Source of the DNA: a bacterium
GTDB taxonomy: Bacteria > Patescibacteriota > Minisyncoccia > Phycocordibacterales > UBA6899
NCBI GenBank assembly: GCA_043743715.1
Contig: JAYTWK010000055.1
Span: forward strand, 10,242 to 74,241
Direction of reading: 5' to 3'
Length of the DNA: 64,000 bases
Part shown: in pieces, positions 8,281 to 47,747 of the stretch
Position numbering within the stretch: the first letter of the stretch is position 1
Layout: each line of letters begins with the position of its first letter
Made by a program: the position numbers and the translations under genes
Notes under the pieces: generated by a model
The model's input: only the letters and a program-made list of their open reading frames with translations
What the model was told of the DNA's origin: nothing
The model's database searches: none

Positions 8281-9057
8281 TTATTGCTTTATCTTCGTAT
8301 TGTTCGCGATCGACTTCGCGAGCCCTTCATTGCGCTTACTCTTGGTATTTTTCTCTCTTACTTCGGGATGTGCATCGAGCGCAGCAATGTACTCGAGATA
8401 CCCGGCATCCGGTGCAGTATGCTCAATCAAAAAACTGATTACCTCAAAATCCTCGGGCGTGTCCACCGTCAGACGATACGCTGAAGTGTCCGTATCTGCC
8501 GATACCCCTCCCTGACGAAATTCGGGATGATTGCGGATGTACGGGGTCACATGTTCGAGTTCTGAAAAGAGCGTCGCTTTTTCCCCAGCTTCCATGAGCG
8601 CAGCGCGGGAGAACACTTCGACATCCATTCCGTCGGGATAAGTCTCTCCTCCAGAGGGGACGTTGCTCACATAATCAAACTCTGGCTGTTTGAAAAAAGT
8701 GACGACCTTATCAACCACCAGCGGATCGATCAAGGGGCAATCCCCAGTCACCCGCACAATGATATCATATCCGGGAAATTTATTTGCGCTCTCAATATAG
8801 CGTGACAACACATCATCAAGTGAACCTCTCACACACGAGAAATTTATTTTTCGGCACAATCTCTCAATCACGTCATCATCACTCGTGGTACTCGTGGCGA
8901 CCACGATCTTATCAATCGTCATACATCGCGACAAACGCTCAAGTTCATACTGTAGCATCGGTATACCCCCCACATCTTTTAGCACCTTACCTGGAAGCCT
9001 AGTCGAGGACATTCTCGCCTGCATGATCGCCAGAACCTTGTGTGGAGCGTTGTTCAT
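8281..9057 (-). CDS. Acylneuraminate/pseudaminate cytidylyltransferase-like (SpsF/PseF family).
   Basis: 258 aa. N-terminal VLAIMQARMSSTRLPGKVL matches SpsF/PseF-type CMP-sugar synthetases. It overlaps the upstream kinase gene by 4 bp. Confidence 0.75.
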   Translation of the reverse strand: MNNAPHKVLAIMQARMSSTRLPGKVLKDVGGIPMLQYELERLSRCMTIDKIVVATSTTSDDDVIERLCRKINFSCVRGSLDDVLSRYIESANKFPGYDIIVRVTGDCPLIDPLVVDKVVTFFKQPEFDYVSNVPSGGETYPDGMDVEVFSRAALMEAGEKATLFSELEHVTPYIRNHPEFRQGGVSADTDTSAYRLTVDTPEDFEVISFLIEHTAPDAGYLEYIAALDAHPEVREKNTKSKRNEGLAKSIANNTKIKQ

Positions 9058-13323: not shown

Positions 13324-14433
13324 TTATTTTGAAAAATACGCTTTTATCGTACGGGCAATATATCCGACTTCATCCTTCGTAAGGTCTTGGAACAGCGGGA
13401 TGGTGATGGCGGTCTCATGATATTCATCCATCACGCTCAAGCTGGTCTTTTTGTATCCATGCTTTCGGTAATAAGGATGACTGTATACCGCAGGATAATG
13501 GAAGTTGACTCCGATATTGTGTTCTTTCAGAAAATTGTACAGCGGCAGCCTGTCTTTTGGCGAGCGCGTGCGGATCATATAGAGGTGCCAGGCGCTCTTC
13601 GCTCCCTTCGTCTCTTTCGGAAGTACGATCTCGGGGATTCCTGCGAGGGCCTTTTCGTACCATGCGACCACACGATTGCGCCTTGCAATGAATTCCTTAA
13701 GGCGAACTATCTGCGATGCGCCAAGCGCCGCATTGATGTCAGGAAGACGATAGTTGTACCCGAGCAGGGTCATGACATTGAATCCTTTTGCGTCTTTCTC
13801 GATGCCATGACTGCGTAAGCGCAATAGTTTTTCATAAAAGGCTTTGTTGCTCGTGAGTACTGCCCCACCCTCACCCGTAGTGATAGATTTGACCGGATGA
13901 AAACTGAACGTCACCAAGTCGCCTCTTGCGCCAATCATATTTTTGCCATACGACGCGCCAAGTGCCTGCGCGCCGTCTTCAATCACCAGCAATTTGTACT
14001 TGTTGGCGAGCGCATAAATCTTCTTCATTTCCGGAGGATTGCCCGCGAAGTGTACTGGTACGATGGCGCGTGTCTTCTTGGTGATAAGTTTTTCTATCTT
14101 TGATTCGTCGATGTTATACGTATCTTTTCTAATATCGCAGAATACCGGTTTTGCACCGACCGCGAGCAGCATGTTGGTGGTCGCAACAAATGTGTTCGGG
14201 CTGGTAATGACTTCATCTCCTTTCTTAAGACCTGCGACAAGGTATGCGAGATGGAGCGCGGCAGTACCGTTCGAAACTGCGACCGCATACTTCGCGCCCG
14301 TCACTCTCACGAGTGCATCCTCAAATTCCCTCACCTTCGGACCTTGTGTCAGCCAGTCTGAATGAAGTGTGTCGGTTACTGCTTTGATATCTTTCTGATT
14401 GATATTCTGATGCCCGTAGGGAATAAATTTCAT
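13324..14433 (-). CDS. DegT/DnrJ/EryC1/StrS-family sugar aminotransferase (PseC/WbpE-like).
   Basis: 369 aa. N-terminal IPYGHQNINQKDIKAV..., VSNGTAALHLA and PLP-lysine context SFHPVKSITTGEGG. Confidence 0.85.
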   Translation of the reverse strand: MKFIPYGHQNINQKDIKAVTDTLHSDWLTQGPKVREFEDALVRVTGAKYAVAVSNGTAALHLAYLVAGLKKGDEVITSPNTFVATTNMLLAVGAKPVFCDIRKDTYNIDESKIEKLITKKTRAIVPVHFAGNPPEMKKIYALANKYKLLVIEDGAQALGASYGKNMIGARGDLVTFSFHPVKSITTGEGGAVLTSNKAFYEKLLRLRSHGIEKDAKGFNVMTLLGYNYRLPDINAALGASQIVRLKEFIARRNRVVAWYEKALAGIPEIVLPKETKGAKSAWHLYMIRTRSPKDRLPLYNFLKEHNIGVNFHYPAVYSHPYYRKHGYKKTSLSVMDEYHETAITIPLFQDLTKDEVGYIARTIKAYFSK

Positions 14434-14511
14434 GATGGGTTATTGCAAATGATAACGGCCAGAAAGCTGTAATGTAGCAAATTATAACATATATCCTGCG
14501 CCTACCTTTAC

Positions 14512-14540
14512 TTGACATCTATAATAAGTAATGCTAAATT
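14512..14540 (+). promoter_or_regulatory. Sigma70-like promoter candidate for the plus-strand membrane-protein gene.
   Basis: TTGACA (14512-14517), a 17-nt spacer, then TAAATT (14535-14540), about 45 nt upstream of the ATG at 14586, in a divergent intergenic region. Confidence 0.3.
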
Positions 14541-14585
14541 AATGTACGGAAATTCACTCGTCCCTCTACAACCTGAAAGGCAGTC

Positions 14586-15644
14586 ATGGACATCAAACGC
14601 CTCTGGCACTTCATCGCCATCCCATCCCTCCTCTTCCTCTTCTGGTTCGCGTACCAGAGCTGGTCTGGCGCTATACGTGTGCACTTCTACGCTCCGCTGT
14701 GGCTTTACCTCCTGATCGCCTTCCTTCCAGTGAAGTGGGCTTCCAAGCAGGTATCGGGTCAACACTCGAGAACCAAGCGATTCCTCATTCAATACTCCTT
14801 CGCAATATGTTTTGCGCTGGCCTTCCATCTATGGAGCGACGGCTTCACTTGGGACCGTCGCAGCTCTCTCGTGTACATGATCGGCATGATCGAGGCGGCT
14901 GGGACCTTCGCGATGTGGAAGGCAACCGAGATATCCCTTGCAAAAGTGTCGCTGTTCTCGTTCATGGATGACCTCATCCCAATGATGATCTCCGCGCTCG
15001 TGTTGAACGAACTTGCGAAGATCTCTCCTCTCACAGGCTTTGGCGTGATCATCTGCCTCTCTGTTGTCGGCTACTTCATCTCTTCTGGAAAGAAAGAGAA
15101 GCGACAACTCGAACTGGAGAAGCGTAAAAAGGATGGCATGAGCGACGAGCACATAGCCGATCTCGATCGGCTTTCGCGGAGTGGGACATTTTTCAAGTAT
15201 GTTGCAATGTACAGCATCGCTTGGGGCGTCTCGATGTTCTTCGCACGCTATCTGTCGTTCAACCAGCTCACTCCCGGAAATTTTGCGATCGGTAAATACT
15301 CGGGTGCATTCACCACCGCGCTCTTGATCTTTTTCTTCTACAAGGACAGCTCGGCAAGCCAGCAGGTCGGGAAGGCCTCGCTTTCCGTGCGAGATTTTGT
15401 ATTCATGTTGTACTACTCGTCCGCGATCGTGCTGTGCGCCATGCTCAGCTATGCGGTCGCACGCACGACCGAGCAGAATGTCTATCAACCGCTCGTCATG
15501 ATTGGTGAAGCGGTCGGCGGGACATGGATCGGCTGGAAGTTCTTCGGTGAAGGAAGGCAGTTCAACAAGAGCGAACGCATCGCAGTCAGCATCGGCCTCC
15601 TCGGCATCGCAGTGATCGGCCTAGCGACCTACCTCAAGGCCTGA
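14586..15644 (+). CDS. Polytopic integral membrane protein of unknown function.
   Basis: 352 aa with about 9-10 hydrophobic helices. No recognisable motif. It is followed by a rho-independent terminator. Confidence 0.4.
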   Translation: MDIKRLWHFIAIPSLLFLFWFAYQSWSGAIRVHFYAPLWLYLLIAFLPVKWASKQVSGQHSRTKRFLIQYSFAICFALAFHLWSDGFTWDRRSSLVYMIGMIEAAGTFAMWKATEISLAKVSLFSFMDDLIPMMISALVLNELAKISPLTGFGVIICLSVVGYFISSGKKEKRQLELEKRKKDGMSDEHIADLDRLSRSGTFFKYVAMYSIAWGVSMFFARYLSFNQLTPGNFAIGKYSGAFTTALLIFFFYKDSSASQQVGKASLSVRDFVFMLYYSSAIVLCAMLSYAVARTTEQNVYQPLVMIGEAVGGTWIGWKFFGEGRQFNKSERIAVSIGLLGIAVIGLATYLKA

Positions 15645-15654
15645 ACGCTACCAA

Positions 15655-15691
15655 CCCCGTATCGGGTCATCGATACGGGGTTTCTTTTTTT
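15655..15691 (+). terminator. Rho-independent terminator.
   Basis: Stem CCCCGTATCG / CGATACGGGG with loop GGTCAT, followed by TTTCTTTTTTT, 11 nt after the stop of the plus-strand gene. Confidence 0.7.
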
Positions 15692-16872
15692 CATATGATC
15701 TGCTTCTGTTCTTGTTCATCAGCCAAACGCATTTCTCTCAATATCAGCATGATTCCGGGAATAGCGAGTAACGAGAGAACAGCACCGATACGAAAACACC
15801 AAATGGGATCAAGCAGAAGATTCATACCGATGCCGAGCACCACGCTTCCGGTAGTCCAAACATAATATCCTGATATGACCCCGAGGAGCCCTTCAGCCGG
15901 ATAAGAACGCCGGAGTGTACTCATGGTGAGTGGCTGTATCAGCGCCGCTGATGCACCCAAACACAGCGCAGTGAGAAGCGACGCAGTGAGTCCGATAGAG
16001 GTGGAGAACATATACGCTGATAGTGCCATGACGCAAAGCGCAATGATAAGGAGAGTGGGATACCGTCTTGGTGAAACATTAAATGTCGCAAACATGATAC
16101 CAAACACCGATCCGAGCTTCAGCACTGCGCCAATCGGACCTACCCAAATGACCCCAAACATGTCGGCAAGTCGTAGCGAGAGCGAAGTGAAACCTATCGC
16201 CGCCAGAAAACTTGCCGCCATAATGGCAAGAATGGAATAGCGAAGCGCTCCCTCTCTCCATATCTCTGCACGATGAGATACCGCCGTCTTTGGAAGCTCA
16301 ACATCAAGGACCCGCAGGAGGAGGAGTGTACCGCACGCAGTCACAAGCGCCATGATAAGGAAGAACGCCTGCTCACCCCATGCAGCAGCAATGAAACCGC
16401 CGGAGAATATTCCCGCTGCGCTTCCTCCGAGTGCACCGGAGACCTCGAGCCCATACCCTCGTCCGATATTATCACTTGAGACATGTGCGATGATTCTGTC
16501 TGCAGATACCCAAAGCAAACTCGCTCCAACACCGATAAGTGCAGAGCAGATGATGATAATGGGAGGAGAACTGAGCGCCGCACCTACAGGAAATATTGCA
16601 TAGGTCGCAGCTCCGACAATGAGCGAGCGACGCGGACTTCCGAACCATGCAATAATGGTCGGTGCATAACTATTCACCGCAAGGTAGACAGAATATAAAA
16701 GAAGAAGTGAGACTATCCCTAATGTCTTAAATCCCGCATGTTTCAAAAACACGGAAAGGAACTGCTGAGCCCCACCGAACCCGAAGAATACAAAAAAGAA
16801 CCCAATCCCTATAGCAACAGGATTGTACATCGTTTCAAGTGATTTCACTTTGCTCTGCATGATACGTATCAC
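15691..16872 (-). CDS. MFS-family transporter.
   Basis: 393 aa, about 12 TM helices, glycine-rich helices typical of MFS. Overlaps the downstream lyase gene by 4 bp. Confidence 0.6.
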   Translation of the reverse strand: MIRIMQSKVKSLETMYNPVAIGIGFFFVFFGFGGAQQFLSVFLKHAGFKTLGIVSLLLLYSVYLAVNSYAPTIIAWFGSPRRSLIVGAATYAIFPVGAALSSPPIIIICSALIGVGASLLWVSADRIIAHVSSDNIGRGYGLEVSGALGGSAAGIFSGGFIAAAWGEQAFFLIMALVTACGTLLLLRVLDVELPKTAVSHRAEIWREGALRYSILAIMAASFLAAIGFTSLSLRLADMFGVIWVGPIGAVLKLGSVFGIMFATFNVSPRRYPTLLIIALCVMALSAYMFSTSIGLTASLLTALCLGASAALIQPLTMSTLRRSYPAEGLLGVISGYYVWTTGSVVLGIGMNLLLDPIWCFRIGAVLSLLAIPGIMLILREMRLADEQEQKQII

Positions 16873-17564
16873 TCTTCAAGCCGCCAGTAGCCGTTCTTCT
16901 GCATCTTCTCCTCTATCGCATGCGCACCCATGCCTGCAACGCGACTAAATACAAAGAGCGCTTTTGCCGCAGCAGGGTCCATCCCAAGTGCGAGTACTCC
17001 AGCAGCAAATGCCCCATCGATATTGAGGGGAAGTTTCTTCCCTTTTTGTTTTTCAAGCAGCTGCTCAATAGCATAAGCTTTCTCAAATGCCACAAGTGGT
17101 ACTTTCCCTTCTTTTGCTTTCGAATAAATAATGGTCGCACGCGGGTCTTCGTCTTTGTATACCTTATGTCCGAATCCGGGAATAAACTTCGCTTCTTTTT
17201 CAAAACGAGTGACTATCTCCTCTGCACTTTCGTCTGATGCGAGCACTCTTCCTGATGCTTCGCCTGCTCCACCATGCGCCTCTCCTATTGCAAGGATTCC
17301 TGCCGCCATCCCAATATGGACTGAATTGCCAGAAGCGACCGATACGCGAGGTACATAGAGTGACGGCGCCTCAATGCCGTGTTCAGCAGAAGCGACCAGC
17401 ATCGCATCGAGAAGTATGCGTTCTCCGTCTGATGGAAGTTTCCCGGTATAAAGCAGAAATACCGTATCAACAAATGAATGTTGCTTCATAAGCTCGGTCA
17501 CCTTGTGCCCGTAGATCTCATGCTCTCCTCCTTCGGTTTTACTAATGTTTGTTTCGTGCTTCAT
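16869..17564 (-). CDS. Citrate-synthase-fold short protein, citryl-CoA lyase (CCL/AclA C-terminal-like).
   Basis: 231 aa. Contains the citrate synthase signature PGFGHKVYKDEDPRATI and LVASAEHG. Much shorter than a true citrate synthase, as in CCL. Confidence 0.65.
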   Translation of the reverse strand: MKHETNISKTEGGEHEIYGHKVTELMKQHSFVDTVFLLYTGKLPSDGERILLDAMLVASAEHGIEAPSLYVPRVSVASGNSVHIGMAAGILAIGEAHGGAGEASGRVLASDESAEEIVTRFEKEAKFIPGFGHKVYKDEDPRATIIYSKAKEGKVPLVAFEKAYAIEQLLEKQKGKKLPLNIDGAFAAGVLALGMDPAAAKALFVFSRVAGMGAHAIEEKMQKNGYWRLEE

Positions 17565-17598
17565 ATTTTTATTTGTGAATTTTACTACGCTCTACGAA

Positions 17599-18507
17599 CT
17601 ACGTACTACCTACTAGTTTCTTAAGTATAACAACGATCTCTTCCGGGGTCTCGGCAATGTACGCACCGGCGGCCCGAAGCTGAGCTTTCTTAACCGATGC
17701 CTTGCCGTTGTCTCCCTCGACGATAGCTCCCGCATGTCCGAGCATGGTACCCGCAGGAAGAGTCTCTCCGAACACACCGGCAATTATTGCGACAACCGGT
17801 TTTTTAATCTTTTTGTCCTTTATTGCTTGTGCGAGACGATTCTCATATGTGCCGCCAAGTTCACCGAACACAACTATTGCCCTGGTGTCCGGATCCTTCT
17901 CAAACAACAATGCAATATCAAGCAGATCGGAACCAATCAATGGGTCTCCGCCGATACCGAGTGCGGTCGACTGACCGATACCCGCTTCAGTGAGGATGCG
18001 CGATATCTCCGAAGTCATACCTCCACTCTTTGAAATGACTCCGATATTCCCGGCCATGAACACACGCTCCGCAAGCCCTCCCGAACCGATGCTGCCAAGT
18101 TTCACTTTGCCGGGAGTAATGACCCCGACCGATGAAGGTCCAATGACCATCGCGTGTTTCTTTTTTGCAAGCGCATACATACGCGCAACATCGAGTACTG
18201 GGACTTTCTCACTTAGGATGTTCACAATTGAAATACCCGCGTTGAGTGCTTCTTCGCACGCCTTTCCGACAAGTTTTCCTGGGATAACGATGAGTGAGGT
18301 GTTTATCTCGGGAAATGCATTTATCGCCTCAGCAACGCTTTCGAATACCGGAACACCCTCCGCTGTGGTTGTTCCGCCCTTCCCCGGAGAAACTCCCGCG
18401 CAAACCACGGTACCGTACGTTGCCATTTCCTTGGCCGCACGCCCACCCTCTTTGCCGGTAATCCCTTGGACAAGAACTCGTGTATATTCGTCGATTAAAA
18501 TACTCAT
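17599..18507 (-). CDS. Succinyl-CoA synthetase alpha-like subunit (CoA-binding plus phosphohistidine domain), candidate citryl-CoA synthetase small subunit.
   Basis: 302 aa. Motifs VLVQGITGKEGG and MLGHAGAIV (phospho-His loop). Confidence 0.8.
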   Translation of the reverse strand: MSILIDEYTRVLVQGITGKEGGRAAKEMATYGTVVCAGVSPGKGGTTTAEGVPVFESVAEAINAFPEINTSLIVIPGKLVGKACEEALNAGISIVNILSEKVPVLDVARMYALAKKKHAMVIGPSSVGVITPGKVKLGSIGSGGLAERVFMAGNIGVISKSGGMTSEISRILTEAGIGQSTALGIGGDPLIGSDLLDIALLFEKDPDTRAIVVFGELGGTYENRLAQAIKDKKIKKPVVAIIAGVFGETLPAGTMLGHAGAIVEGDNGKASVKKAQLRAAGAYIAETPEEIVVILKKLVGST

Positions 18508-18622
18508 CCCGTTAGAAGTAGGCCGCGAACAGTAGTGTTCGCATGCTGACTTTATTAGTATTGATAATATAATTTTGACTCATGGAATTGTGATATGTGT
18601 CGTGTCCGCGACTTCTAACGGG
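18508..18622. repeat. 115-bp intergenic element with 12-bp terminal inverted repeats (copy 1 of 3).
   Basis: CCCGTTAGAAGT ... ACTTCTAACGGG. It abuts the start codon (18505-18507) of the minus-strand gene. An internal palindrome GCGAACAGTAGTGTTCGC is present. Matching copies are at 54647-54764 and 61012-61132. Confidence 0.7.
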
Positions 18623-18624
18623 AC

Positions 18625-19683
18625 TCATGATCTTTTCATTAATTCGACTATTCTCTTGGCAGAATCAGACATCGAAAGTTCCGGGCCATATACCTCAATA
18701 TTGAAACCTTCTTCTTTTGCGAATTTTTCTAGCATGGCTTTCGCTTCAGGCTGACGCGGACCGTCTCTTCGAATGACAATGGGGTACAGAGGTTTCGGGG
18801 TCACTTTTCTTAATCCGGCAACAAATCCAAGTAGAGTTTCATAGATATCTGTAAAATTTGCCGTGCCTCCTATCACCCATGCACCCCTTAGACCCGGGCG
18901 CGAAAGTACCCGGAGAGTCAGTCCTTCGACCACTGATGCAAGTGGGTTTCCTGAATATTCGACATAATTTGCCGGTCTTCCCTTTTCATTCACTAATATA
19001 TCGATGTTGAGCATCGATGCGCCGCCGCCTGAAGCGATGACAGCAATGTCGCCATCGAGATCAACGTACGGACGCTCCTGTGAAAATGCATCGTCGATCA
19101 CCATCTTCGCGTCCCCTGCTATTACCTTTCCTTCCTTGGTAATGAATAGCGGATTAATCTCCGCAAGGACAAGGTGTTCTTCGCAAAAAAGTTTCCATAA
19201 TGCAGAAATAACAGCAGATAATTCAGGAGACGGTGAGATACCGGCGATGCGAAGCGCGGCATTCACGAATACCTCATCTACACCGACAAGCACATCTATT
19301 GCGGTAATCGATGCACTGCCGACACCGGTGCCGCCTTTTTTATTGAGTGAAAGAATTGGAGCGCGATGCTCGCTCGAGTACGAGATGCTGAGATACAGCT
19401 CATCGGTATACGCGATAAGTTCTTCAGCAAGGAGTACTTCGGGCTTCATCCCGTCGATTGTGAGTGTAAAGAGTTTCGGTAATACAATCTTCAATTCTGT
19501 TTCATCCTTCACTATGATGATTCCTCCTTTCTTCATGCGGTCGCCGGTAGCAACCTGTGATTTCAGAACCATCGGATAAGAAAGTTTCGGGAGTGCGGCG
19601 GAGTTTAGAAGCAGTTCGAATTGCGGCGTTGCTATTCCATAATTACGGAATAGTTCTTTTCCTTCATGTTCAAGCAACTTCAT
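18625..19683 (-). CDS. Succinyl-CoA synthetase beta-like ATP-grasp subunit, candidate citryl-CoA synthetase large subunit.
   Basis: 352 aa. ATP-grasp N-terminus MKLLEHEGKELFRNYGIATPQ and a C-terminal CoA-ligase domain. Confidence 0.75.
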   Translation of the reverse strand: MKLLEHEGKELFRNYGIATPQFELLLNSAALPKLSYPMVLKSQVATGDRMKKGGIIIVKDETELKIVLPKLFTLTIDGMKPEVLLAEELIAYTDELYLSISYSSEHRAPILSLNKKGGTGVGSASITAIDVLVGVDEVFVNAALRIAGISPSPELSAVISALWKLFCEEHLVLAEINPLFITKEGKVIAGDAKMVIDDAFSQERPYVDLDGDIAVIASGGGASMLNIDILVNEKGRPANYVEYSGNPLASVVEGLTLRVLSRPGLRGAWVIGGTANFTDIYETLLGFVAGLRKVTPKPLYPIVIRRDGPRQPEAKAMLEKFAKEEGFNIEVYGPELSMSDSAKRIVELMKRS

Positions 19684-19694
19684 ATTATTTTTCT

Positions 19695-20246
19695 TTATTT
19701 TCTTGGGCTCTGATACTCGTCACGCAAAAGTCCGTACTTGAACATATCTTTCCACTCACCGTTCTTGTACATCTCATGGCGAAACCTTCCTTCCTCTTTA
19801 CATCCGAGTGCGAGCGCAAGCTTCTGCATGCCGACATTATCCTCTGACGTGCCGAGATAGATGCGGTGGAGGTTCAGCTGGTCAAATCCGTGCTCGACGA
19901 TGAGCGTCATCGCTTCTTTCCCGACGCCTTTACCCCAAAAGCTTTTGTCGCCGATAAGGATAGCAAATTCTGCCGATTGATTGGTCTTGTCAATATTCTG
20001 TAGACTGATGTTCCCGATATGCACATCGGTCGCTTTGTCACAAATAGCGAGGATGAGATTGTCGTGTGAAGCGATAGTACTCTCGTAATACGCGAGCATA
20101 TCTTCGTCGTACTGCGGGAAGCGATGGTGCGAATTAAATTCACAAATCTCCACATCATTGAACCAATCGCGATACTTCTCAGTAAGATCCTCCTTTCCGA
20201 TAGTTCGTAGGTAGATATTCGTACCTGAGAGAAATGGTTTTTTCAT
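19695..20246 (-). CDS. GNAT-family N-acetyltransferase (RimL/PseH-like).
   Basis: 183 aa. GNAT motif A GKGVGKEAMTLIVEHGF. Sits immediately downstream of pseB. Confidence 0.65.
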   Translation of the reverse strand: MKKPFLSGTNIYLRTIGKEDLTEKYRDWFNDVEICEFNSHHRFPQYDEDMLAYYESTIASHDNLILAICDKATDVHIGNISLQNIDKTNQSAEFAILIGDKSFWGKGVGKEAMTLIVEHGFDQLNLHRIYLGTSEDNVGMQKLALALGCKEEGRFRHEMYKNGEWKDMFKYGLLRDEYQSPRK

Positions 20247-20257
20247 GATGGGAAGAA

Positions 20258-21274
20258 TTACTTAGAGCCCTTCATCAATTCTTCCATGCGGTCAATGATG
20301 CGCAGCAGTTCTTCTTTTGGCATCGCATTCACTTCGCTATCACTTGAAAAATGGAAGTCAGGCGCGAGTTCTCTTCCTTTATCAAGAAATTTCTGGGCCT
20401 TCGTCCTGCTAAACAGATTAGTATTCTCCGGCAGTACCACATAATAATCACCGAAATCCACCGAATGGCGTGCTTCTTCGCGCGTGAGAAGTATTTCATG
20501 TACTTTCTCGCCCGGACGTATGCCAATGATATTGCGTTTTGCTTTGGGTGCAATAATATCGAACAGATCGGCGAGCTTCATTGTCGCCGCTTTCGGGATG
20601 AAGATCTCGCCTCCCTCCATATTCGTCAGCGCGAACAGCACTATTTCGAATGCCTTATCAAGATCAATCCAAAAACGTGTCATGCGCTCGTCGGTGATAT
20701 GCACGGTATGCGCACCCTTGTTCTGTATCAGTTTCTCAACGATGCTGCCGCGACTACCGACGACATTGCCGTAGCGCACAACACTAAAACGCGTTTGCCC
20801 GCCTCCATATGCATTGCCTGCAATAAATAGTTTTTCTGCGCAAAGTTTCGTAGAGCCGTAGAGATTTGCGGGCATCGCAGCTTTATCAGTCGATACCAGT
20901 ACTGCACGCTCTACACCCTGGTCGATAGCCGCTTCAATCACATTCTGACTGCCAAGGATATTGGTCTTCACCGCCTCGAACGGATTGTATTCAAGTGCGG
21001 GGACTTGCTTTAATGCTGCCGCATGCACCACAATGTCGACACCGTGGAACGCGCGCTGTAGTCGCGGTAGGTCGCGTACATCGCCCAAGAAGAAGCGCAA
21101 ACGCTCATCGGGAATCTCTGCCTCCATGACCGATTGCTTAAGTTCGTCGCGCGAAAACACGATGACCTTCTTGGGATCGCCATTCGCAAGGATATGCTTG
21201 ATGAAATTCTTTCCGAATGATCCTGTGCCGCCGGTGACGAGTACTGTCTTTCCTTTTACAATTTCTAAATCCAT
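20258..21274 (-). CDS. pseB: UDP-N-acetylglucosamine 4,6-dehydratase (inverting), PseB/FlaA1 type.
   Basis: 338 aa. Very close match to the H. pylori FlaA1 / C. jejuni PseB pattern: KTVLVTGGTGSFGK, IVFSRDELKQ, VVRYGNVVGSRGS, LYGSTKLCAEK, TRFWI. Confidence 0.85.
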   Translation of the reverse strand: MDLEIVKGKTVLVTGGTGSFGKNFIKHILANGDPKKVIVFSRDELKQSVMEAEIPDERLRFFLGDVRDLPRLQRAFHGVDIVVHAAALKQVPALEYNPFEAVKTNILGSQNVIEAAIDQGVERAVLVSTDKAAMPANLYGSTKLCAEKLFIAGNAYGGGQTRFSVVRYGNVVGSRGSIVEKLIQNKGAHTVHITDERMTRFWIDLDKAFEIVLFALTNMEGGEIFIPKAATMKLADLFDIIAPKAKRNIIGIRPGEKVHEILLTREEARHSVDFGDYYVVLPENTNLFSRTKAQKFLDKGRELAPDFHFSSDSEVNAMPKEELLRIIDRMEELMKGSK

Positions 21275-21303
21275 AGTGTTCCCATATTACTGACGAATAA
21301 TCC

Positions 21304-22314
21304 TTAAATCAAGCGCGCTGCGCTTTTGGCATTTCTTACACGGATGATGTCTTCGAACGGCAGCGGGGCCTTTTGTTTCCCCAGGAGTGTAATGCTGATG
21401 GTCCGGATCCCACAGAGTACCGAAAGCACCATCGCAACGGTCTCAGTACCGATAACTACCTTTGCAGAAAGAAAGTCGCGGACGATATCTTTTTCTTTTG
21501 ATTTCTCGATAATGACCGTGCGAGCATAATGTTTGATTAAGTCATCGTAGCGCGTGTGGTCATCAGCTGGGTGGAAACGAAGCCGTATGTGATGAGGGGC
21601 TTTTTGTCGAGGAAGATTTGCCAGTAGTTCTCCAAATATCTCCTCCATGCCAGCTACCGCGTCGCTTAAAAACAGTACACCATGGGGACGAGCCGACCCT
21701 AACTTCTCTTTTGTATATCGTTCCTTGACCGCCCTAAAATACTGATTCGGCATGTAGCGAACACTTATCTTCGGAAAGAATTTTTTTGCCAGGAGAAGTG
21801 CGGGGCGATCCCCCACCCAGATTTGATCAGGTAGTCTATCTCTCCAGTTTTTTTCAGGATAACCGAATCGTTCGCGAAAATTTGACCATGACTCGAGGTA
21901 CACCACACTCTTTAGCCCCTTCATTCGAGCCAGAAGAAGTGCTGTAGATTCAATCTTCGTCATCCAGCCACTCCCAAAGAGTGCATAAGAAACGTCGAGA
22001 TGCTGGTCAATCACCAATGCGATCACTCGTCGCTCTTTTGTGACGCGTGAAATAGTTATTCCCTCACGCTGGAATATCTTTACTGCGGGTCCAGCAGCAT
22101 ATACATGAAACTCATTTTTGTCTCTTCGTGCTCGTATGTGGGCAGCAATGATCTCAGCTCCTCCCGCATCATGGGCGATGACAAGAACCTGCGGCAAAAG
22201 TGAAGCAGGTTTCGCGCTTGGATGTCGCGATCCTATGTGAAGTGATTTCTCTTTTTTCATATCTCGCGTGTATGCAGAATGAACATTAGCGTTCAAAATG
22301 TATCTCCTCACCAC
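21304..22314 (-). CDS. GT-B-like protein of uncertain function, possibly a PseG-like UDP-sugar hydrolase or glycosyltransferase.
   Basis: 336 aa. Two-Rossmann-like layout with an N-terminal VLVIAHDAGGAEIIAA. No secure family assignment from sequence alone. Confidence 0.3.
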   Translation of the reverse strand: MVRRYILNANVHSAYTRDMKKEKSLHIGSRHPSAKPASLLPQVLVIAHDAGGAEIIAAHIRARRDKNEFHVYAAGPAVKIFQREGITISRVTKERRVIALVIDQHLDVSYALFGSGWMTKIESTALLLARMKGLKSVVYLESWSNFRERFGYPEKNWRDRLPDQIWVGDRPALLLAKKFFPKISVRYMPNQYFRAVKERYTKEKLGSARPHGVLFLSDAVAGMEEIFGELLANLPRQKAPHHIRLRFHPADDHTRYDDLIKHYARTVIIEKSKEKDIVRDFLSAKVVIGTETVAMVLSVLCGIRTISITLLGKQKAPLPFEDIIRVRNAKSAARLI

Positions 22315-22954
22315 TCACTCCCTTACTCTCGAGCTGTGACCGCATTGCGCCGACAAACTCCGTCCCTCCACAAATATAGAATCCCGCTTGACTATCTCCG
22401 CATCCGGAAAGAAATTTTGTACTCTCCTCTTCATCAGTAACAATATTGTATTTAAAATGTGGGTGCAAATCTGCAAGTCCACGTAGCTCCTCGAGCAATT
22501 CGTCGTAACCTTCAGGCTCTTTGTAGAAGAGTAGCTGCACTGGCTCTTCGGTGGTACGTTTTTTTAGAAGTTCAAGAATCATGGGAATGATCGGTGCGAT
22601 TCCCGCACCCGCACAGATGAACACCGCTGGCTGTTCTTTCTCTTCAAGCACGAAATTTCCCTTTGGCATACTTCCTCGTATCTTCTCATTGAGAGCAACT
22701 CTCGAGAAAAAATTAGAAGCAAGACCTCCGGCACGCATCTTAATGATGACGTCGATGACTCCTTTTTCAGGATGAGAGGCAATAGAAAATGAGCGTTCTT
22801 TAATTTCCTTTCCATCTGGAATGAGCAGTGTGAGGTACTGCCCTGGATGAAAATCAAAATTAATCCCATCAACAAGGATAAGCTCACACAAGAGTACATC
22901 TTTCGCGATCATGCGTTTCTGTGCAACTCGTAGTACTAAAGGGAAATCTTTCAT
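22286..22954 (-). CDS. FNR-like FAD/NAD(P)-binding oxidoreductase (ferredoxin-NADP reductase module).
   Basis: 222 aa. FAD-binding R-x-F-S motif RSFSIAS after HPGQYLTL. NAD-binding GAGIAP in VFICAGAGIAPIIPM. Confidence 0.6.
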   Translation of the reverse strand: MKDFPLVLRVAQKRMIAKDVLLCELILVDGINFDFHPGQYLTLLIPDGKEIKERSFSIASHPEKGVIDVIIKMRAGGLASNFFSRVALNEKIRGSMPKGNFVLEEKEQPAVFICAGAGIAPIIPMILELLKKRTTEEPVQLLFYKEPEGYDELLEELRGLADLHPHFKYNIVTDEEESTKFLSGCGDSQAGFYICGGTEFVGAMRSQLESKGVSGEEIHFER

Positions 22955-22958: not shown

Positions 22959-23831
22959 CTATCTGAGGTTATTTTTCCACTCTACAAGGAATGGAAATCT
23001 TCTTTTAATCTCATTCTTCAACATCTCTTTGCCTTTGAGTAATCCTACTGCACCAGAAGGTGGCTGGGTATGATTCCCGCAGATGATATTGCCTTGATTA
23101 TCTACCTGTCCAAAATACGAAACCAGGATATGCCCTGGGTGTTGGATGGTCATACCCCCGTGTCCTTCAGTTTTCTTCAAGAATTCGATCCCTTCTTGCC
23201 CAAAGTGTCCACCAATACTGAGCGAAGCACAACCGAACGGTGGAATTTTAAAGGGCTTGCCAACAAGTATATCTCCAGAGAGATTGCTGAGCTTCGGAAC
23301 AAGCTCGACTGAATCTTCATAGGACATGTCTGAGGAGTGATTGATAATAATGTTGAAGGTATCAAGTTCCCCCCCCTTCACCACGACCGGACAGAACATA
23401 AAAAAATTCTTCTTTGATCTGTCTGGTCCTGCATTGACCTCATTAAATGGCCCAATCGCAAACAGTGTCCCACCTGAAGCTGAGTTCCAGTGGAGTGCGA
23501 GATCCTTTGAAGTGAGCGTCTTTTTATTGAATTTTTCACCGCTCACACAAAGTAATATCGTACCCTCTACGATCGCGTCACTAAAACGCTTCTCAATTTC
23601 ATCAGTATCGAGCACAAGCGACTCACTCGGCATAAGTGTTCTTTGGATAATCTGGTGCTTTCTCGTCATGATCCCTTCGGGCGGGAATATGACTGCAGAT
23701 ATCTCTTCGACTCCAGACGAATCATTCTGATAGATAAATAAGCTCTTCGTCTTATCTTTCGGTATACGAAAATATCCAGAGAAGAAAAAATTCGATGGTG
23801 GGATGGTGAGCTCAGGTTTCATAAGCATCAA
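22959..23831 (-). CDS. Hypothetical protein, apparently beta-rich, with no recognisable family.
   Basis: 290 aa. Consistent coding frame. Its start overlaps the upstream hypothetical gene by 4 bp (ATGA). Confidence 0.4.
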   Translation of the reverse strand: MMLMKPELTIPPSNFFFSGYFRIPKDKTKSLFIYQNDSSGVEEISAVIFPPEGIMTRKHQIIQRTLMPSESLVLDTDEIEKRFSDAIVEGTILLCVSGEKFNKKTLTSKDLALHWNSASGGTLFAIGPFNEVNAGPDRSKKNFFMFCPVVVKGGELDTFNIIINHSSDMSYEDSVELVPKLSNLSGDILVGKPFKIPPFGCASLSIGGHFGQEGIEFLKKTEGHGGMTIQHPGHILVSYFGQVDNQGNIICGNHTQPPSGAVGLLKGKEMLKNEIKRRFPFLVEWKNNLR

Positions 23832-24628
23832 AGGTGGTCCCCCTTAAAGGTCTCGGCGCCTTCCATAATGATCAGCGGTTTTCCGAGAATATTTGTTCCA
23901 CTCATCCGAATGCTAAATGGCTCATTGCCAATATGAGCGCCAAGGTGAGGTTCAATGTCAAAGAGGTTAACTTTGTTAGCACCAAGCGAGGTTTCAATGT
24001 TGGGAAGAGTAAGCGAGAGCGACTCACGTTTTGCATTGATGACTGCGAGCGACATGGACGCACTACTTCCTCTCAATTGTGAACCATTCGCATAAAGAAG
24101 ATTTGGAGTACTGTCTTCCGGAAGCATGAGACCGGTCGAAGTCCGGTCATACTCATAAAAACTCGCGGTGGGAAAACCGAGACTATGCATCAGTATCTTG
24201 TGTGTCCTCCCTTTGGTCCTTCTGGTAAGTTCAGTGAAGAAAATCGTTCCAAACGGCTTACTTGCGGTGTACTCTTTGTCATCAAATGCAATCTTCACCC
24301 ACAGTATACCGAATGCGCCATATTTCTTTTCATCAGAGAGCGTGATAACCGCGCCAGCACTTCCATGGAGTGTTCCTGTTTTTGTTTCGATCTTGTTTCC
24401 ACTTGCACTAAAAATATCAACCGACCACTTTGCTCCGGCGTCACTCGAATCGGTAAGCAATGGGAAATAGTTCTGTATGTATATCCGAGTCTCAAACGCT
24501 GTACCGCAAACGAAATACGAAATAGCCCCAACTGGATTAAAAAAAATCTTCGGCAAAAGAACATCAGTCAGTTTCTTTTTTCTGACATGCTGACGAAAGA
24601 TGAAATGCGCGTTTTTGCCTATGTTCAT
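23828..24628 (-). CDS. Hypothetical protein with no recognisable family.
   Basis: The frame is open to 24766, but the upstream 46 codons overlap the C-terminus of the previous gene. An internal Met (MNIGKNAHF...) at 24628 is the more plausible start, giving 267 aa. Confidence 0.35.
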   Translation of the reverse strand: MNIGKNAHFIFRQHVRKKKLTDVLLPKIFFNPVGAISYFVCGTAFETRIYIQNYFPLLTDSSDAGAKWSVDIFSASGNKIETKTGTLHGSAGAVITLSDEKKYGAFGILWVKIAFDDKEYTASKPFGTIFFTELTRRTKGRTHKILMHSLGFPTASFYEYDRTSTGLMLPEDSTPNLLYANGSQLRGSSASMSLAVINAKRESLSLTLPNIETSLGANKVNLFDIEPHLGAHIGNEPFSIRMSGTNILGKPLIIMEGAETFKGDHL

Positions 24629-24647
24629 AGCATAATTATTCCGTTCT

Positions 24648-25451
24648 TTACTTCTTAAGTTGGAACACAAGCCTCGTCTTGCGCCCAGGAGTATGATCGA
24701 CATCATCTCTCCAGAATACATGACCGACTTGCTCGCCGAACAGTGACAGCACACCAGCGATATCACACACCGTGCCTGTACTGTATCCCACCTCCTCGGT
24801 GTATGTCAGTGAACAAGCAATCAGCGCTCCCGGTTTCGATACGCGCACAATCTCTTTGATAGCTTTCGGAAGATCGTAGGCGTAGCGCAGTACCCATGCA
24901 CAGTTGACGGTGTCGAACGTATTGTCATGAAAGGTCATCTCGTGGAGATCCATGATCAGAATACTCGGGCAATAGGTGAAGAGATCGATGCCGACAACAT
25001 CTTTGAATCCGTGCGCCTTAAAGAGAAGTAGTTCGCCTTCGTTCTTCGGTCCAATTGAAAGGGTCTTTCCATTCTTGTTTGCATGAGCTGAAATCAAGAG
25101 ATAGAGAAGTGACTCAGCGCGACGGGAAAACCGGAACACATCGAACTTATTCCAAAAATTGTGATCAATGACGTTGACGTTGTGCTTTGACTGCTCAGTC
25201 ACGGAAATGACGTCAAACACGAAACCGCGACGCGCAAGGAAATACATCGCTCGTAGACCGTACACCGCCTGCAGAACCATTCTCCCCTGCATGAGGTATT
25301 CACGGAAAGAACCTATAAACAGGGGGCGCTCGGGGTAGACGAGCATCTTTATCATCAATTTCAGTCCGCCTTTTCCTGCGAGCCGGAGCGCCTCATGTAG
25401 CGTCACTTTCATCGGAAGCATACTCTCCTCCTTCTTATTGATTGTTTCCAT
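24648..25451 (-). CDS. Divergent class I methyltransferase-like protein.
   Basis: 267 aa. Motif I-like LSIGPKNEGE, an acidic motif II VVGIDL, motif post-I MDLHEMTFHDNTFDTV and ...VSKPGALIA. Confidence 0.45.
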   Translation of the reverse strand: METINKKEESMLPMKVTLHEALRLAGKGGLKLMIKMLVYPERPLFIGSFREYLMQGRMVLQAVYGLRAMYFLARRGFVFDVISVTEQSKHNVNVIDHNFWNKFDVFRFSRRAESLLYLLISAHANKNGKTLSIGPKNEGELLLFKAHGFKDVVGIDLFTYCPSILIMDLHEMTFHDNTFDTVNCAWVLRYAYDLPKAIKEIVRVSKPGALIACSLTYTEEVGYSTGTVCDIAGVLSLFGEQVGHVFWRDDVDHTPGRKTRLVFQLKK

Positions 25452-27856: not shown

Positions 27857-28586
27857 TGATGGCGACGACCTCGGGATGATTCCGTAAATACTTTACGATA
27901 GCAGTTGCTGAGAAGTATGGATCCTGCGGCAGTAATGCATCGGCGACCGCGCATAGTGCTTTGTAGTCATTCTCCTCATCGAGCGTCATGCGTAGGTCAG
28001 GACCATACGTGTCTTGGTCAGCTTCAAAATTGTAGCAGCGGAAACGGTCCTTGTGGGTGTAAATATAGTATGAAACATGCGTGCGGTCTACTGGGTCTTT
28101 TGTAAGTGTGTCGACCTCAGCAAGTGCCTTAGTCGAAAACACCTGTACATCGAATCCGTTGGCGAATGTCTGATGGTCGGGCTCGGTTGTGTTGCCAACA
28201 TAATCCACCTCATGTTCGAAGTATTCCGATATCCCCCGGTCAACGATTTCCGCGTCCATAAACGGGCAGTCAGAAGTAATTTCGACGATCACATCTGCAT
28301 GTGCATATGTAGCTGCACCAAGTACACGTCCGAGTACGTCTTCTTCACTGCCGCGGAATACTGAAACACCGAGATGCTCTCCGAGCATGACTATCGGCTC
28401 GTCGGCGGCATTCACGGTGGTTGCAATACATATACCGTCGAGGTATCTGCTCTGCCTTAGGCGCATGATGAGCATCTCAAGCGCAGGCATTCCCGCAATG
28501 GGGCGCAGCACCTTCCCCGGCAAGCGCGATGAGGTCATGCGCGCTTCGATGGTCGCAATGATGCGTTCATTCTGTTTCTTGTACAT
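27819..28586 (-). CDS. SpsF/PseF-type cytidylyltransferase, paralog of 8281-9057.
   Basis: 255 aa. RIIATIEARMTSSRLPGKVL. Confidence 0.7.
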   Translation of the reverse strand: MYKKQNERIIATIEARMTSSRLPGKVLRPIAGMPALEMLIMRLRQSRYLDGICIATTVNAADEPIVMLGEHLGVSVFRGSEEDVLGRVLGAATYAHADVIVEITSDCPFMDAEIVDRGISEYFEHEVDYVGNTTEPDHQTFANGFDVQVFSTKALAEVDTLTKDPVDRTHVSYYIYTHKDRFRCYNFEADQDTYGPDLRMTLDEENDYKALCAVADALLPQDPYFSATAIVKYLRNHPEVVAINAETKQKKAYEL

Positions 28587-29646
28587 GGTCGTTTTGATCT
28601 ATAACTTTTATATAACCGTCTCTGAACGCCTCTGTTTCTTTGAGAAAAAGTGCTTTGCTGTAATACCTCACTCCGCGCGATTCATCGACAAATGTCCCGC
28701 CGAAGCCGCGTTTGAAGCGGGCGATGTTCTTGATCTTATCGTCAGTAATATATCCGAACTGTGCTGAAGGATTAGCAGGCTGTCCGACATCTATCCATTT
28801 CACTCCCTTGTTTTGAAAATATTCCATCGCACTCCACATGAGGATGTGATAGAGCGGGAGATGAGTCATCTCTGGGTCAGCTGCGGCGGATGCATAAACC
28901 GCCTTATCCTCGTACATCTCATAGTATGCATAGGCGATAACTTTCCCTTTGTATCTGACCCCACAGAGTATCGCATTGCCGTCGGTGAGTTTTTTGTATT
29001 GTGAGTCGAACGAATCTTTTGAGCGAGTCACACGACCAGCGTCAATACGATGCAGTTCACGGTATTCTTCGTGCAGGTCATAATCCGAATGCATCTTATC
29101 GACAACAAACCGCACGTAGTCAGGATTTTTGAGTACGGTTTTAATATCCGAACGGTGTCCCCTTCGGGAGTGCCTAAGGAGATCGCCCGGGAGTGTAAGG
29201 TCGATGAGATAGGTGAGGAATGAATCATCAAGGTAATCGTGCGCGAGCAAGAAGTTGTACGGATACGATGCTTTGAGGAGCGGATCGATAACGAACATAG
29301 TCTTGGCTACGTTTTGCGTGCGGGCTACTTTGTCTATATAACCCATCAACTCTTTACGTGCAAAGTCACTGGTGAAGAGCGGTGCCATGGTATGTCTTCC
29401 ACTGAAACTGATGCTGCGCACTCCGTCTTTTTCTTCTATTGGTAAGAATACCGCGCCGACCGGTTCGTTGTTTTGAATAACTACTGCACTTTCATCAACT
29501 TTCAGTAATTCGCGGCTTTCCGACATCTCGATAAAATTCCGTATCGCGCTCTGCATGTATCTGGGGCCTGCTGATGTGCGCAGGACGAGTGTATCCCAAT
29601 GCTTCCAGAATATTTCCTCCTGCTCTTTCTTTTTTATGAGTTCCAT
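28567..29646 (-). CDS. FemAB-like/GNAT-fold acyltransferase family protein.
   Basis: The ORF is open to 29715, but the likely start is MELIKKK at 29646. The C-terminal half (AILCGVRYKGKVIAYAYYEMYEDKAVYASAAADPEM...LYHILMWSAMEYFQNKGVKWIDVGQ) resembles FemAB/BioF2-like acyltransferase domains. Confidence 0.4.
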   Translation of the reverse strand: MELIKKKEQEEIFWKHWDTLVLRTSAGPRYMQSAIRNFIEMSESRELLKVDESAVVIQNNEPVGAVFLPIEEKDGVRSISFSGRHTMAPLFTSDFARKELMGYIDKVARTQNVAKTMFVIDPLLKASYPYNFLLAHDYLDDSFLTYLIDLTLPGDLLRHSRRGHRSDIKTVLKNPDYVRFVVDKMHSDYDLHEEYRELHRIDAGRVTRSKDSFDSQYKKLTDGNAILCGVRYKGKVIAYAYYEMYEDKAVYASAAADPEMTHLPLYHILMWSAMEYFQNKGVKWIDVGQPANPSAQFGYITDDKIKNIARFKRGFGGTFVDESRGVRYYSKALFLKETEAFRDGYIKVIDQNDHVQETE

Positions 29647-29662
29647 ATGATTATGCGTTTGG

Positions 29663-36888: not shown

Positions 36889-36996
36889 AACGACTCCAGT
36901 TTGCGCAATGGTCTTTAGGATTATTCCCTGGATATCATTTGTTTCTGTTTGCCCCGTTTGTAATACAACATTTTTCGAATATAAAACGAGTCTATA

Positions 36997-37035: not shown

Positions 37036-37107
37036 ATATAGACGCTGAGTTTTTTTATTTGCGGACAGGGGTTCAGAAAACGAAAGAGGGCTATATTACA
37101 GGAAATC

Positions 37108-47655: not shown

Positions 47656-47747
47656 TGAGGCTGGAGAGAAAATGAACGGAAATTTGAAATGCACTTCGAA
47701 GAAATGCTGGGGGGTTATCTGAGATTAACTATTATGGGCGTGACAAT

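Follow-up and report, generated by a model that had tools for sequence, protein, structure and literature searches.

A compact citryl-CoA synthetase/lyase gene trio in a pseudaminic-acid-type glycan cluster of a Candidate Phyla Radiation bacterium

Introduction

The citryl-CoA synthetase (CCS) and citryl-CoA lyase (CCL) of Hydrogenobacter have been established biochemically and their structures are available (6hxq, 6hxp), and bacterial enzymes of the ATP-citrate lyase (ACL) type are treated as markers of the autotrophic reductive tricarboxylic acid (rTCA) cycle. Here we analyze three adjacent genes (the trio) that, judged by their sequences, encode CCS and CCL as compact, separate proteins and so amount to a split ACL. 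They lie among pseudaminic acid (Pse) genes in a 64-kb stretch of contig JAYTWK010000055.1 (the window) from a bacterium of the Candidate Phyla Radiation (CPR). Nearly all of the window is taken up by sugar-biosynthesis genes that follow one another on the minus strand.

CPR bacteria and DPANN archaea account for much of microbial diversity; their tiny genomes are not known to encode a tricarboxylic acid (TCA) cycle or fatty-acid synthesis. Their peptidoglycan and surface glycans need acetyl-CoA, the source of which is poorly defined. For a Gracilibacterium with a closed genome, a two-subunit ACL, termed 'rarely detected in CPR', was predicted to make acetyl-CoA and oxaloacetate out of citrate from outside the cell (Sieber et al. 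2019, PMC6851277). A preprint (10.1101/2022.10.25.513756) notes that some CPR and DPANN proteins with the annotation succinyl-CoA synthetase (SCS) or citrate synthase group with CCS or CCL, and metagenome surveys either score the aclAB or CCS/CCL genes of CPR and DPANN metagenome-assembled genomes (MAGs) as rTCA or carbon-fixation markers or take them for misannotated SCS or citrate synthase. Our literature search for CCS/CCL or ACL linked to GlmS, GlmU, YvcK, Pse or MBOAT genes in CPR found no report, subscription journals lying mostly outside its coverage. The enzymes belong to a known family; the apparent novelty is that a compact form of three genes is widespread in CPR and DPANN as a cassette with a non-rTCA, envelope-sugar context.

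Results

Organization of the gene cluster

The features between the PseB gene and the end of the predicted transcription unit are as follows.

20258-21274, minus strand: PseB, UDP-GlcNAc 4,6-dehydratase (inverting); TIGR03589, PF02719
19695-20246, minus strand: GNAT N-acetyltransferase; PF13302
18625-19683, minus strand: SucC-like CCS large subunit, 352 aa; PF08442 and PF16114
18508-18622, no strand: insertion resembling a miniature inverted-repeat transposable element (MITE), 115 nt; terminal inverted repeats, TGAG duplication
17599-18507, minus strand: SucD-like CCS small subunit, 302 aa; PF02629 (CoA_binding) and PF00549 (Ligase_CoA)
16869-17564, minus strand: CCL, 231 aa; PF00285, NF004869
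15691-16872, minus strand: UNC-93-like MFS transporter, last gene of the predicted transcription unit; PF07690, PF05978
15653-15682, no strand: terminator-like hairpin with a T-run; 13-bp GC-rich stem

A sequence-only reading of this DNA had described six open reading frames (ORFs) in this order on the minus strand at 15691-21274, tightly spaced except at a repeat element. All coordinates were reproduced, and the spacers from PseB to the MFS gene are 11, 11, 117 and 34 nt, followed by a 4-nt overlap. The overlap holds for the MFS start at GTG 16872; an independent gene call placed the start at ATG 16860 (389 aa), which leaves an 8-nt gap. Pfam and NCBIfam profile searches upheld the family assignments of all six proteins. 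Both motifs quoted in the reading are also there, GHAGA in the SucD-like protein (residues 257-261) and GFGHKVYKDEDPRA in the 231-aa protein (residues 130-143).

The trio encodes a predicted unfused CCS and CCL

The subunits were placed by bit-score ranking and motifs. The 231-aa protein has the short citrate-synthase fold (~230-270-aa class), without the N-terminal part of citrate synthase; the PF00285 match covered its C-terminal half only (profile positions 169-355 of 357). In NCBIfam, its five best models were all citryl-CoA lyase (151-201 bits; the top one, NF004869, fell slightly below its cutoff), and the best citrate-synthase model gave 88.9 bits against a cutoff of 421, all cutoffs of such models being >330. 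The best PDB match was the CCL of H. thermophilus (6hxp; 143.5 bits, E 8e-41), with residues 5-223 aligned to residues 7-229 of 6hxp; citrate synthases reached <=86 bits and the CCL module of ACL ~61 bits. The active-site residues H62, H97, H133 (GFGH), R142, D183 (NIDG) and R208 are all present, and H97, H133, R142 and D183 were invariant across 68 CCL family sequences.

The large subunit combines PF08442 (ATP-grasp_2; 67.8 bits) with PF16114, the ACL citrate-binding domain (68.2 bits, cutoff 26.8), and Pfam gave no match on it to PF00549, the Ligase_CoA domain of SCS. TIGR01016 (SCS beta) reached 136.3 bits against a cutoff of 375.6, on residues 1-199 (the ATP-grasp half) only. The best PDB match was the large subunit of H. 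thermophilus CCS (6hxq_B, 128.7 bits), followed by Chlorobium AclB and then SCS beta. The C-terminal domain carries the ACL motifs EYSG, ANFT and RRDG. In an alignment with human ACL (ACLY), whose N-terminal sequence was checked against the published numbering of F347, N346, T348 and R379 alone, the citrate contacts correspond to S218 G219, Y243 S244 G245 (N246), (G273 T274) A275 N276 F277 T278 and R306, and these positions were nearly invariant among 52 CPR large subunits. The contacts in the human crystal structure are 280-281, 307-310, 343-348 and 379 (PMC11365397).

In the small subunit, the G, H and A of the phospho-histidine loop GHAGA were invariant, and the loop as a whole (near-)invariant, in 54 sequences. 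PDB matches ranked SCS alpha of Aeropyrum (2yv2, 255.9 bits) above CcsB (6hxq_A, 175.7) and AclA (6hxj_B, 149.6), and NF004230 (SCS alpha) gave 274.5 bits, below its cutoff of 336. On these scores, the small subunit is the least diagnostic member of the trio.

Some GenBank annotations use the names SCS and citrate synthase, and the closeness of the alpha subunit to SCS alpha would suit an ordinary SCS next to a truncated citrate synthase. This explanation is barely credible. The scores fell short of the cutoffs for SCS beta (136 vs 376 bits), SCS alpha (274 vs 336) and citrate synthase (<=89 vs >330), and the C-terminal domain of the beta subunit has the ACL motifs; a housekeeping SCS with a truncated citrate synthase was rejected on these grounds. 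The identification as a split CCS/CCL made in the sequence-only reading was supported by the PDB matches, PF16114, the citrate-contact residues, the phospho-His loop and the His/His/Asp set.

The trio is a widespread cassette beside amino-sugar and acetyltransferase genes

GTDB, with one genome per species, was scanned with the lyase, which yielded 371 loci. The best 80, each from a different assembly, were fetched with 10 kb on each side; ORFs were called, clustered and named via Pfam and NCBIfam, and hidden Markov models of the clusters were searched back over all ORFs. CCSb-CCSa-CCL in identical order and strand was present in 55 of the best 80 loci, and no genome among the 80 had a second trio locus. 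The SucD-like and CCL genes of the window are separate ORFs, with a stop codon and the 34-nt gap between them, and they are likewise unfused in all 55 related loci. These loci come from Lloyd-, Wildermuth-, Andersen-, Sung-, Yanofsky-, Kaiser-, Nomura-, Lipton-, Uhr-, Magasanik-, Colwell- and Daviesbacteria, from other CPR lineages and from DPANN archaea. In the remaining loci of the 80, mainly from Zixibacteria, Ignavibacteria, Calditrichaeota and groups like them, no synthetase genes adjoin the lyase-like gene. A HMMER search with the lyase over 1.84 billion cluster representatives gave 38 matches at E <= 1e-30, and the top matches were mostly ~230-270 aa long. In L057 and L078 (Magasanikbacteria-type), genes for AdoMet decarboxylase, LemA and a TPM-domain protein sit between CCSb and CCSa and split the cassette.

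An amino-sugar-pathway or acetyltransferase family occurred within 10 kb of the trio in 41 of the 55 loci and within three genes in 38, raw counts from loci that are not phylogenetically independent; for rough comparison, in a genome of ~1,000 genes the chance that a gene present once falls within three genes of a given point is of the order of 1%. The families were as follows, as numbers of the 55 trio loci.

GlmS: 20 loci; 811 bits; usually directly upstream of the trio
YvcK, UDP-GlcNAc-binding protein: 18 loci; 331 bits; usually directly downstream of the trio
Small GNAT: 11 loci
Archaeal-type bifunctional GlmU: 9 loci; 276 bits
Separate nucleotidyltransferase: 8 loci
GNAT3, the family of the window GNAT: 6 loci
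MBOAT O-acyltransferase: 4 loci
Stand-alone LbH acetyltransferase half: 3 loci

MurB, BacA/UppP and Wzy-type genes were additionally found near the trio in some loci. The gene orders included LeuRS-GlmS-trio-YvcK-GlmU-Sua5-SHMT-FolD; GlmS-trio with BacA upstream; NTP-transferase-GlmS-YvcK-GNAT-trio; TrmB-GlmS-LbH-trio-Tdh-Kbl-YvcK; the trio followed by GlmS on the other strand; and MBOAT immediately 5' or 3' of the trio. Because the orders differ among lineages (at least five), the association with amino-sugar genes is not a single inherited block.

Genes of acetyl-CoA and oxaloacetate metabolism were also observed. Tdh and Kbl (glycine C-acetyltransferase; 580 bits, cutoff 460) directly follow the lyase in L020, L045 and L055, and an acetylating acetaldehyde dehydrogenase (DmpF), a DmpG-type aldolase and a thiamine pyrophosphate enzyme lie upstream of CCSb in L048 and L063. 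In three loci (L059, L067, L079), a malic enzyme is encoded 2-3 genes downstream of the lyase and may be an oxaloacetate sink.

These neighborhoods bear on the direction of the reaction. ACL and CCS/CCL chemistry is reversible in principle, and the literature treats these genes as rTCA markers; the trio could then act as a citrate synthase that gains ATP by the backward reaction (acetyl-CoA + oxaloacetate + ADP + Pi -> citrate + ATP) or form part of a TCA or rTCA cycle. We consider this very improbable, as neither the 64-kb window nor the 55 trio loci yielded a TCA or rTCA gene, the malic enzyme in three loci excepted, and the neighbors consume acetyl-CoA and do not produce oxaloacetate. To our knowledge, CPR genomes have no TCA cycle. 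An rTCA role was rejected for want of cycle genes in any of these neighborhoods.

The window contains a pseudaminic-acid-type cluster

The remaining members of the Pse cluster and the gene that interrupts it are listed below.

21304-22314, minus strand: Pfam-less GT-B-fold protein, candidate UDP-sugar hydrolase; AlphaFold model and Foldseek
14586-15644, plus strand: multi-pass membrane protein, 352 aa; no family match
13324-14433, minus strand: PseC aminotransferase; TIGR03588
8281-9057, minus strand: CMP-sugar synthetase, KdsB/PseF-like; CTP_transf_3
7197-8273, minus strand: PseI, pseudaminic acid synthase; TIGR03586

PseB (TIGR03589, 426.8 bits, cutoff 407.75; PF02719, 301.6 bits), PseC (TIGR03588, 426.2 bits, cutoff 423.5) and PseI (TIGR03586, 418.6 bits, cutoff 340.25) all pass their equivalog cutoffs, and the label pseudaminic-acid-type cluster is therefore justified. 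The GNAT at 19695-20246 gave 82.6 bits with PF13302 and 31.8 bits with the PseH model, the cutoff of which is 93.1. Its closest matches of known structure, aminoglycoside 6'-N- and spermidine N-acetyltransferases, are acetyl-CoA-dependent amine N-acetyltransferases, and its family recurs in Pse-type clusters of other CPR; by its position it is a candidate for the enzyme of the PseH step. The CMP-transferase at 8281-9057 gave 28.4 bits with the PseF model (cutoff 205.7), and the NCBIfam scan of the window proteins found no match to the PseG models.

The protein at 21304-22314, directly upstream of PseB and 318 aa long from ATG 22260, had no match in Pfam or NCBIfam. Its 186 homologues (~300 aa) are all 'hypothetical' CPR proteins, and the gene was PseB-adjacent in all sampled clusters. 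An AlphaFold model (pLDDT 91.4) had a GT-B fold, and Foldseek matched it to MurG, to UDP-GlcNAc 2-epimerases including the hydrolysing NeuC, and to C. jejuni PseG (3hbm). These matches suggest a candidate for the missing UDP-sugar hydrolase step (PseG/NeuC-like).

The glycan-biosynthesis island spans >45 kb of the window. It also encodes a kinase, a HAD phosphatase, two GFO-type oxidoreductases, a class-III aminotransferase, a second DegT aminotransferase, a second cytidylyltransferase, more GNAT-type proteins, an AsnB-type amidotransferase, a polysaccharide deacetylase, many methyltransferases, glycosyltransferases and an ABC exporter. Several acetyl-CoA users lie within the island, among them the GNATs at 19695-20246 and 6057-6515. 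An FAD/NAD-binding reductase (22286-22954) and a FemAB-like Acetyltransf_6 protein (28567-29715) lie amid the sugar genes, and Pfam-less ORFs of 290, 312, 586 and 595 aa were noted in the island (regions 22959-24766, 32198-33958 and 39992-41779, minus strand).

The wealth of tailoring enzymes (AsnB amidotransferase-type, several methyltransferases, FemAB-like Acetyltransf_6) leaves room for an unusual N-acyl group. The sequence-only reading had offered as an alternative that the synthetase pair uses some other carboxylate in place of citrate, giving a non-acetyl acyl-CoA and a novel N-acyl nonulosonate, and the similarity of the small subunit to SCS alpha and the CCL score slightly under its curated cutoff would fit that idea. 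The large subunit, however, keeps the ACLY citrate-contact residues, and a citrate-synthase-fold lyase with intact catalytic residues, pointless for a simple acyl-CoA synthetase, is always co-encoded. The trio also lies beside GlmU-type enzymes, whose known donor is acetyl-CoA. With the citrate pocket and the lyase both conserved, a non-acetyl donor is disfavored and in our view improbable.

Linkage of the trio to Pse-type clusters is recurrent and optional

We know of no classical pseudaminic acid cluster with acetyl-CoA-generating genes. The linkage reported by the sequence-only reading was found again in related genomes (L002, L003, L004, L012, L028, L033, L082, L083 and L084). The order is PseB-trio-PseC-GFO-aminotransferase-CMP-transferase in L082, GNAT-WbuX-amidase-GFO-DegT-orf-PseB-trio-NeuB-DUF218 in L083 and DegT-trio in L084; L002, L003, L004 and L012 have similar Pse-type contexts. 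In the distant L028 and in L033, a complete Kaiserbacteria chromosome (CCL identity 47% and 42%, respectively), the trio divergently adjoins GNAT/WbuX-amidotransferase/amidase/PseB. In the window cluster itself the trio follows the GNAT gene.

As a reverse test, clusters were sampled through an independent marker, the Pfam-less PseB-adjacent protein (21304-22314). The trio was absent within 10 kb from all six further CPR Pse-type clusters obtained in this way, which share the core CMP-transferase-GFO-DegT-GNAT-orf-PseB-NeuB-DUF218. One of the six, L089, agrees with L083 even in the distal flank Wzy-MurB-SecA, and the difference between them is three genes inserted between PseB and NeuB. Since six Pse-type clusters do without it, the Pse pathway needs no adjacent trio, and its presence or absence among Pse clusters, as in L083 and L089, marks the trio as an optional inserted cassette. 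The sequence-only reading had proposed a dedicated module supplying acetyl-CoA for N-acylation in the nonulosonate pathway. The supply part is supported by the trio standing beside GlmS, YvcK, GlmU-type genes, small GNATs and MBOATs in other CPR; the dedication to the nonulosonate pathway was overstated in view of the trio-less clusters.

A further explanation accepts a true citrate-cleaving CCS/CCL and makes it a general housekeeping source, placed beside pse or glmS by genome compactness and inherited synteny with no functional coupling. The six trio-less clusters speak for it, as does the order from LeuRS to FolD given above, which includes unrelated housekeeping genes; moreover, as no genome among the best 80 loci has two trio loci, the single copy must meet all acetyl-CoA needs. 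Against it stand the gene orders, at least five in number, with four acetyltransferase classes (GlmU-type LbH, GNAT3, small GNAT and MBOAT) and with CCLs only 34-57% identical to that of the window. The precise insertion of the trio between PseB and NeuB in an otherwise syntenic cluster, and the gathering of the acetyl-CoA-forming Kbl and DmpF at trio loci, also count against it. We regard placement by synteny alone as rather unlikely.

The MFS transporter and the end of the unit

The MFS protein matched PF07690 (MFS_1, 60.7 bits) and PF05978 (UNC-93, 37.4 bits). A word-based homologue search returned 4 near-identical proteins, NCBIfam gave a weak 'multidrug' superfamily match alone, and the PDB held no relative at E <= 1. 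Among the trio loci, an MFS gene stands beside the trio only in the window and in its nearest relative, L004. UNC-93-type MFS genes were present in two of the six trio-less Pse-type clusters (L086 and a contig of ERZ27297570), and the L086 homologue (16761-17894, minus strand) is 29% identical over 361 residues (E 2e-36). Because homologues occur in trio-less Pse clusters, the MFS gene ties to the glycan cluster and not to citrate cleavage, and the transporter probably belongs to that cluster rather than acting as a citrate importer. These findings told against the carboxylate importer coupled to the trio that the sequence-only reading had suggested.

The membrane-protein gene (14586-15644, plus strand) breaks the minus-strand run between the MFS gene and PseC. 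Its product had no family match in Pfam or NCBIfam and was unrelated to the protein encoded after the MFS gene in L086. The gene is in the same place in L004 and absent in L082, where PseC directly follows CCL. The hairpin at 15653-15682 marks the convergent junction of the MFS (minus) and membrane-protein (plus) genes and the end of the unit. In a promoter and terminator scan, promoter-like sites were rarer in 14400-22500 than in shuffled sequence, and this hairpin was the only convincing one; the scan is neutral on a single transcript from PseB to MFS.

A MITE-like element interrupts the CCS genes

The 117-nt gap between the CCS genes contains the 115-nt element (18508-18622), which is bounded by terminal inverted repeats of 11-12 nt and accompanied by a duplicated TGAG. 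It is inserted into the ancestral ATGA stop/start overlap of the two genes, the uninterrupted junction of which is ATGAGTATT in L082 and L002, and the start codon of the small subunit is rebuilt from the last A of the element and the duplicated TG. The window contains three such copies of ~115-120 nt (18508-18622, 54647-54764 and 61012-61132), with terminal repeats (A)TCCCGTTAGAR ... YTCTAACGGGA(T) and 4-nt duplications TGAG, TGAA and TGAA. In all three, the end of the element coincides with the ATG of the gene that lies downstream on the minus strand. A 133-nt RNA of the element folded at -36.6 kcal/mol (z = -3.7), and Rfam gave no match to it.

Other features of the window

Scans of the whole 64-kb window for tRNA genes and Rfam families gave no matches. 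Metagenome contigs of up to 76.7 kb carry an identical copy of the window DNA. Among named relatives, a Candidatus Lloydbacteria MAG is the closest (87% identity in CCL and 73-93% in neighboring proteins), which places the organism in the CPR (Patescibacteria).

Several repeats were observed outside the trio. Copies of a ~450-nt repeat at 48204-48658 and 50207-50661, 2.0 kb apart and 81-90% identical (families D1-D3, D8), cover the starts and upstream regions of the genes 47748-48263 and 48749-50266. A 54-nt stretch at 47620-47673 is repeated at 48648-48701. The plus-strand genes 61296-61892 and 61969-62526 are adjacent paralogues whose internal segments are 72-83% identical at a 715-nt offset. 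Two palindromes are intergenic: a perfect one of 29+29 nt without a spacer (51045-51102) and one of 25+25 nt, 96%, with a 4-nt spacer (36990-37043).

Discussion

We propose, with reasonable though not strong confidence, that the trio splits scavenged citrate to provide acetyl-CoA for the N-acetylation of envelope sugars, with its consumers co-transcribed. ATP would phosphorylate His258 of the small subunit, the phosphate would pass to citrate in the ACL-type pocket of the large subunit, CoA would displace it to form citryl-CoA, and the lyase would release acetyl-CoA and oxaloacetate. We infer citrate, obtained by scavenging, as the substrate and cleavage as the direction. The trio would be co-transcribed with PseB, the GNAT gene and other genes that consume its product, and it would feed the neighboring acetyltransferases: the adjacent GNAT (PseH step) here and GlmU elsewhere in the genome. 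The role would then be anabolic acetyl-CoA supply, not carbon fixation as in Hydrogenobacter. We speculate that oxaloacetate is converted to pyruvate or phosphoenolpyruvate, the latter being consumed by PseI.

Several observations weigh against this proposal. The match of the lyase to NF004869 was slightly short (200.6 bits, cutoff 212). At CCL position 62 the first catalytic His, present in the window protein and in 52 of the 68 family members, is replaced by Asn in 14. By bit-score ranking the small subunit is nearer to SCS alpha than to CCS or ACL. The six Pse-type clusters found through the independent marker have no trio nearby, and the neighbor counts come from loci that are not independent of each other. 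None of the tested neighbors was present in 14 of the 55 trio loci, many of which are on short contigs or belong to DPANN or Colwellbacteria.

The single copy per genome among the best 80 loci, together with the Pse clusters that have no trio, leads us to view the trio as a general acetyl-CoA supply under envelope-sugar control. A source for the whole cell, sited in a glycan operon, is more likely than one reserved for the nonulosonate pathway. The trio behaves as a portable CPR/DPANN cassette and lies beside different acetyl-CoA-consuming amino-sugar genes in different lineages, most often glmS, yvcK and glmU-type genes; in the clade of the window organism, it is flanked by PseB/GNAT and PseC/PseI of a pseudaminic-acid-type cluster. 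More tentatively, and with less confidence than doubt, we suggest that in many CPR and DPANN the cassette is the main, perhaps the sole, route to acetyl-CoA. It would run on host or environmental citrate, be wired to amino-sugar acetylation (UDP-GlcNAc, pseudaminic-acid-type sugars and O-acetylation by MBOAT) and move between glycan operons.

If this is true, dependence on citrate would characterize the metabolism of these symbionts, and a bacterial ATP-citrate lyase would have an anabolic role outside the rTCA cycle that parallels eukaryotic ACLY. Citrate cleavage yielding acetyl groups for the cell envelope offers a testable alternative to the rTCA interpretation. It points to citrate as a host-derived nutrient and advises caution in counting CPR and DPANN CCS/CCL genes as rTCA markers. 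The very small enzymes may also be useful for the biochemistry of ACL and for studies of citrate synthase evolution.

Comparison with known systems

The cluster resembles the Campylobacter and Helicobacter PseBCHGIF system in its PseB, PseC and PseI equivalogs, with the GNAT, the GT-B-fold protein and the CMP-sugar synthetase as candidates for H, G and F. It differs in that these three candidates score below the family models and in having many extra tailoring genes.

The CCS pair shares its superfamily with SucCD; the alpha subunit gave 256 bits with Aeropyrum SCS alpha, and SCS beta models match the beta subunit over its ATP-grasp half. In contrast to SucCD, both window subunits fall below the NCBIfam SCS cutoffs, the C-terminal domain of the beta subunit is of the ACL citrate-binding type, and in trio loci the pair invariably has the lyase gene next to it.

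The Gracilibacterium ACL likewise belongs to a CPR bacterium with predicted conversion of citrate to acetyl-CoA. That enzyme is of a two-subunit, archaeal-like form with no reported link to sugar genes, whereas the three-gene form described here occurs in many CPR lineages and is set within amino-sugar loci.

The closest described enzymes are CcsAB and Ccl of H. thermophilus (6hxq, 6hxp), which are also three separate polypeptides of equal domain content and share with the trio the phospho-His loop, the ACL-type citrate pocket and the citrate-synthase-type His/His/Asp. The window proteins are shorter (352, 302 and 231 aa, compared with 429, 353 and 268 residues in the solved chains), and their small subunit resembles SCS alpha more closely than it resembles CcsB. 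The trio is also unlike the H. thermophilus genes in being a tight cassette inside a sugar operon, with no visible rTCA context.

ACL (Chlorobium AclAB, Methanothrix ACLY-A/B and eukaryotic ACLY) has homologous modules and the same overall chemistry, and the citrate contacts of human ACLY are shared. The SucD-like and CCL modules are fused in ACL, and all three modules in eukaryotes, whereas they are separate ORFs here; ACL chains also score below CCS/CCL chains for the window proteins. Eukaryotic ACLY produces acetyl-CoA from imported citrate for biosynthesis, a physiological logic parallel to the one proposed for the trio.

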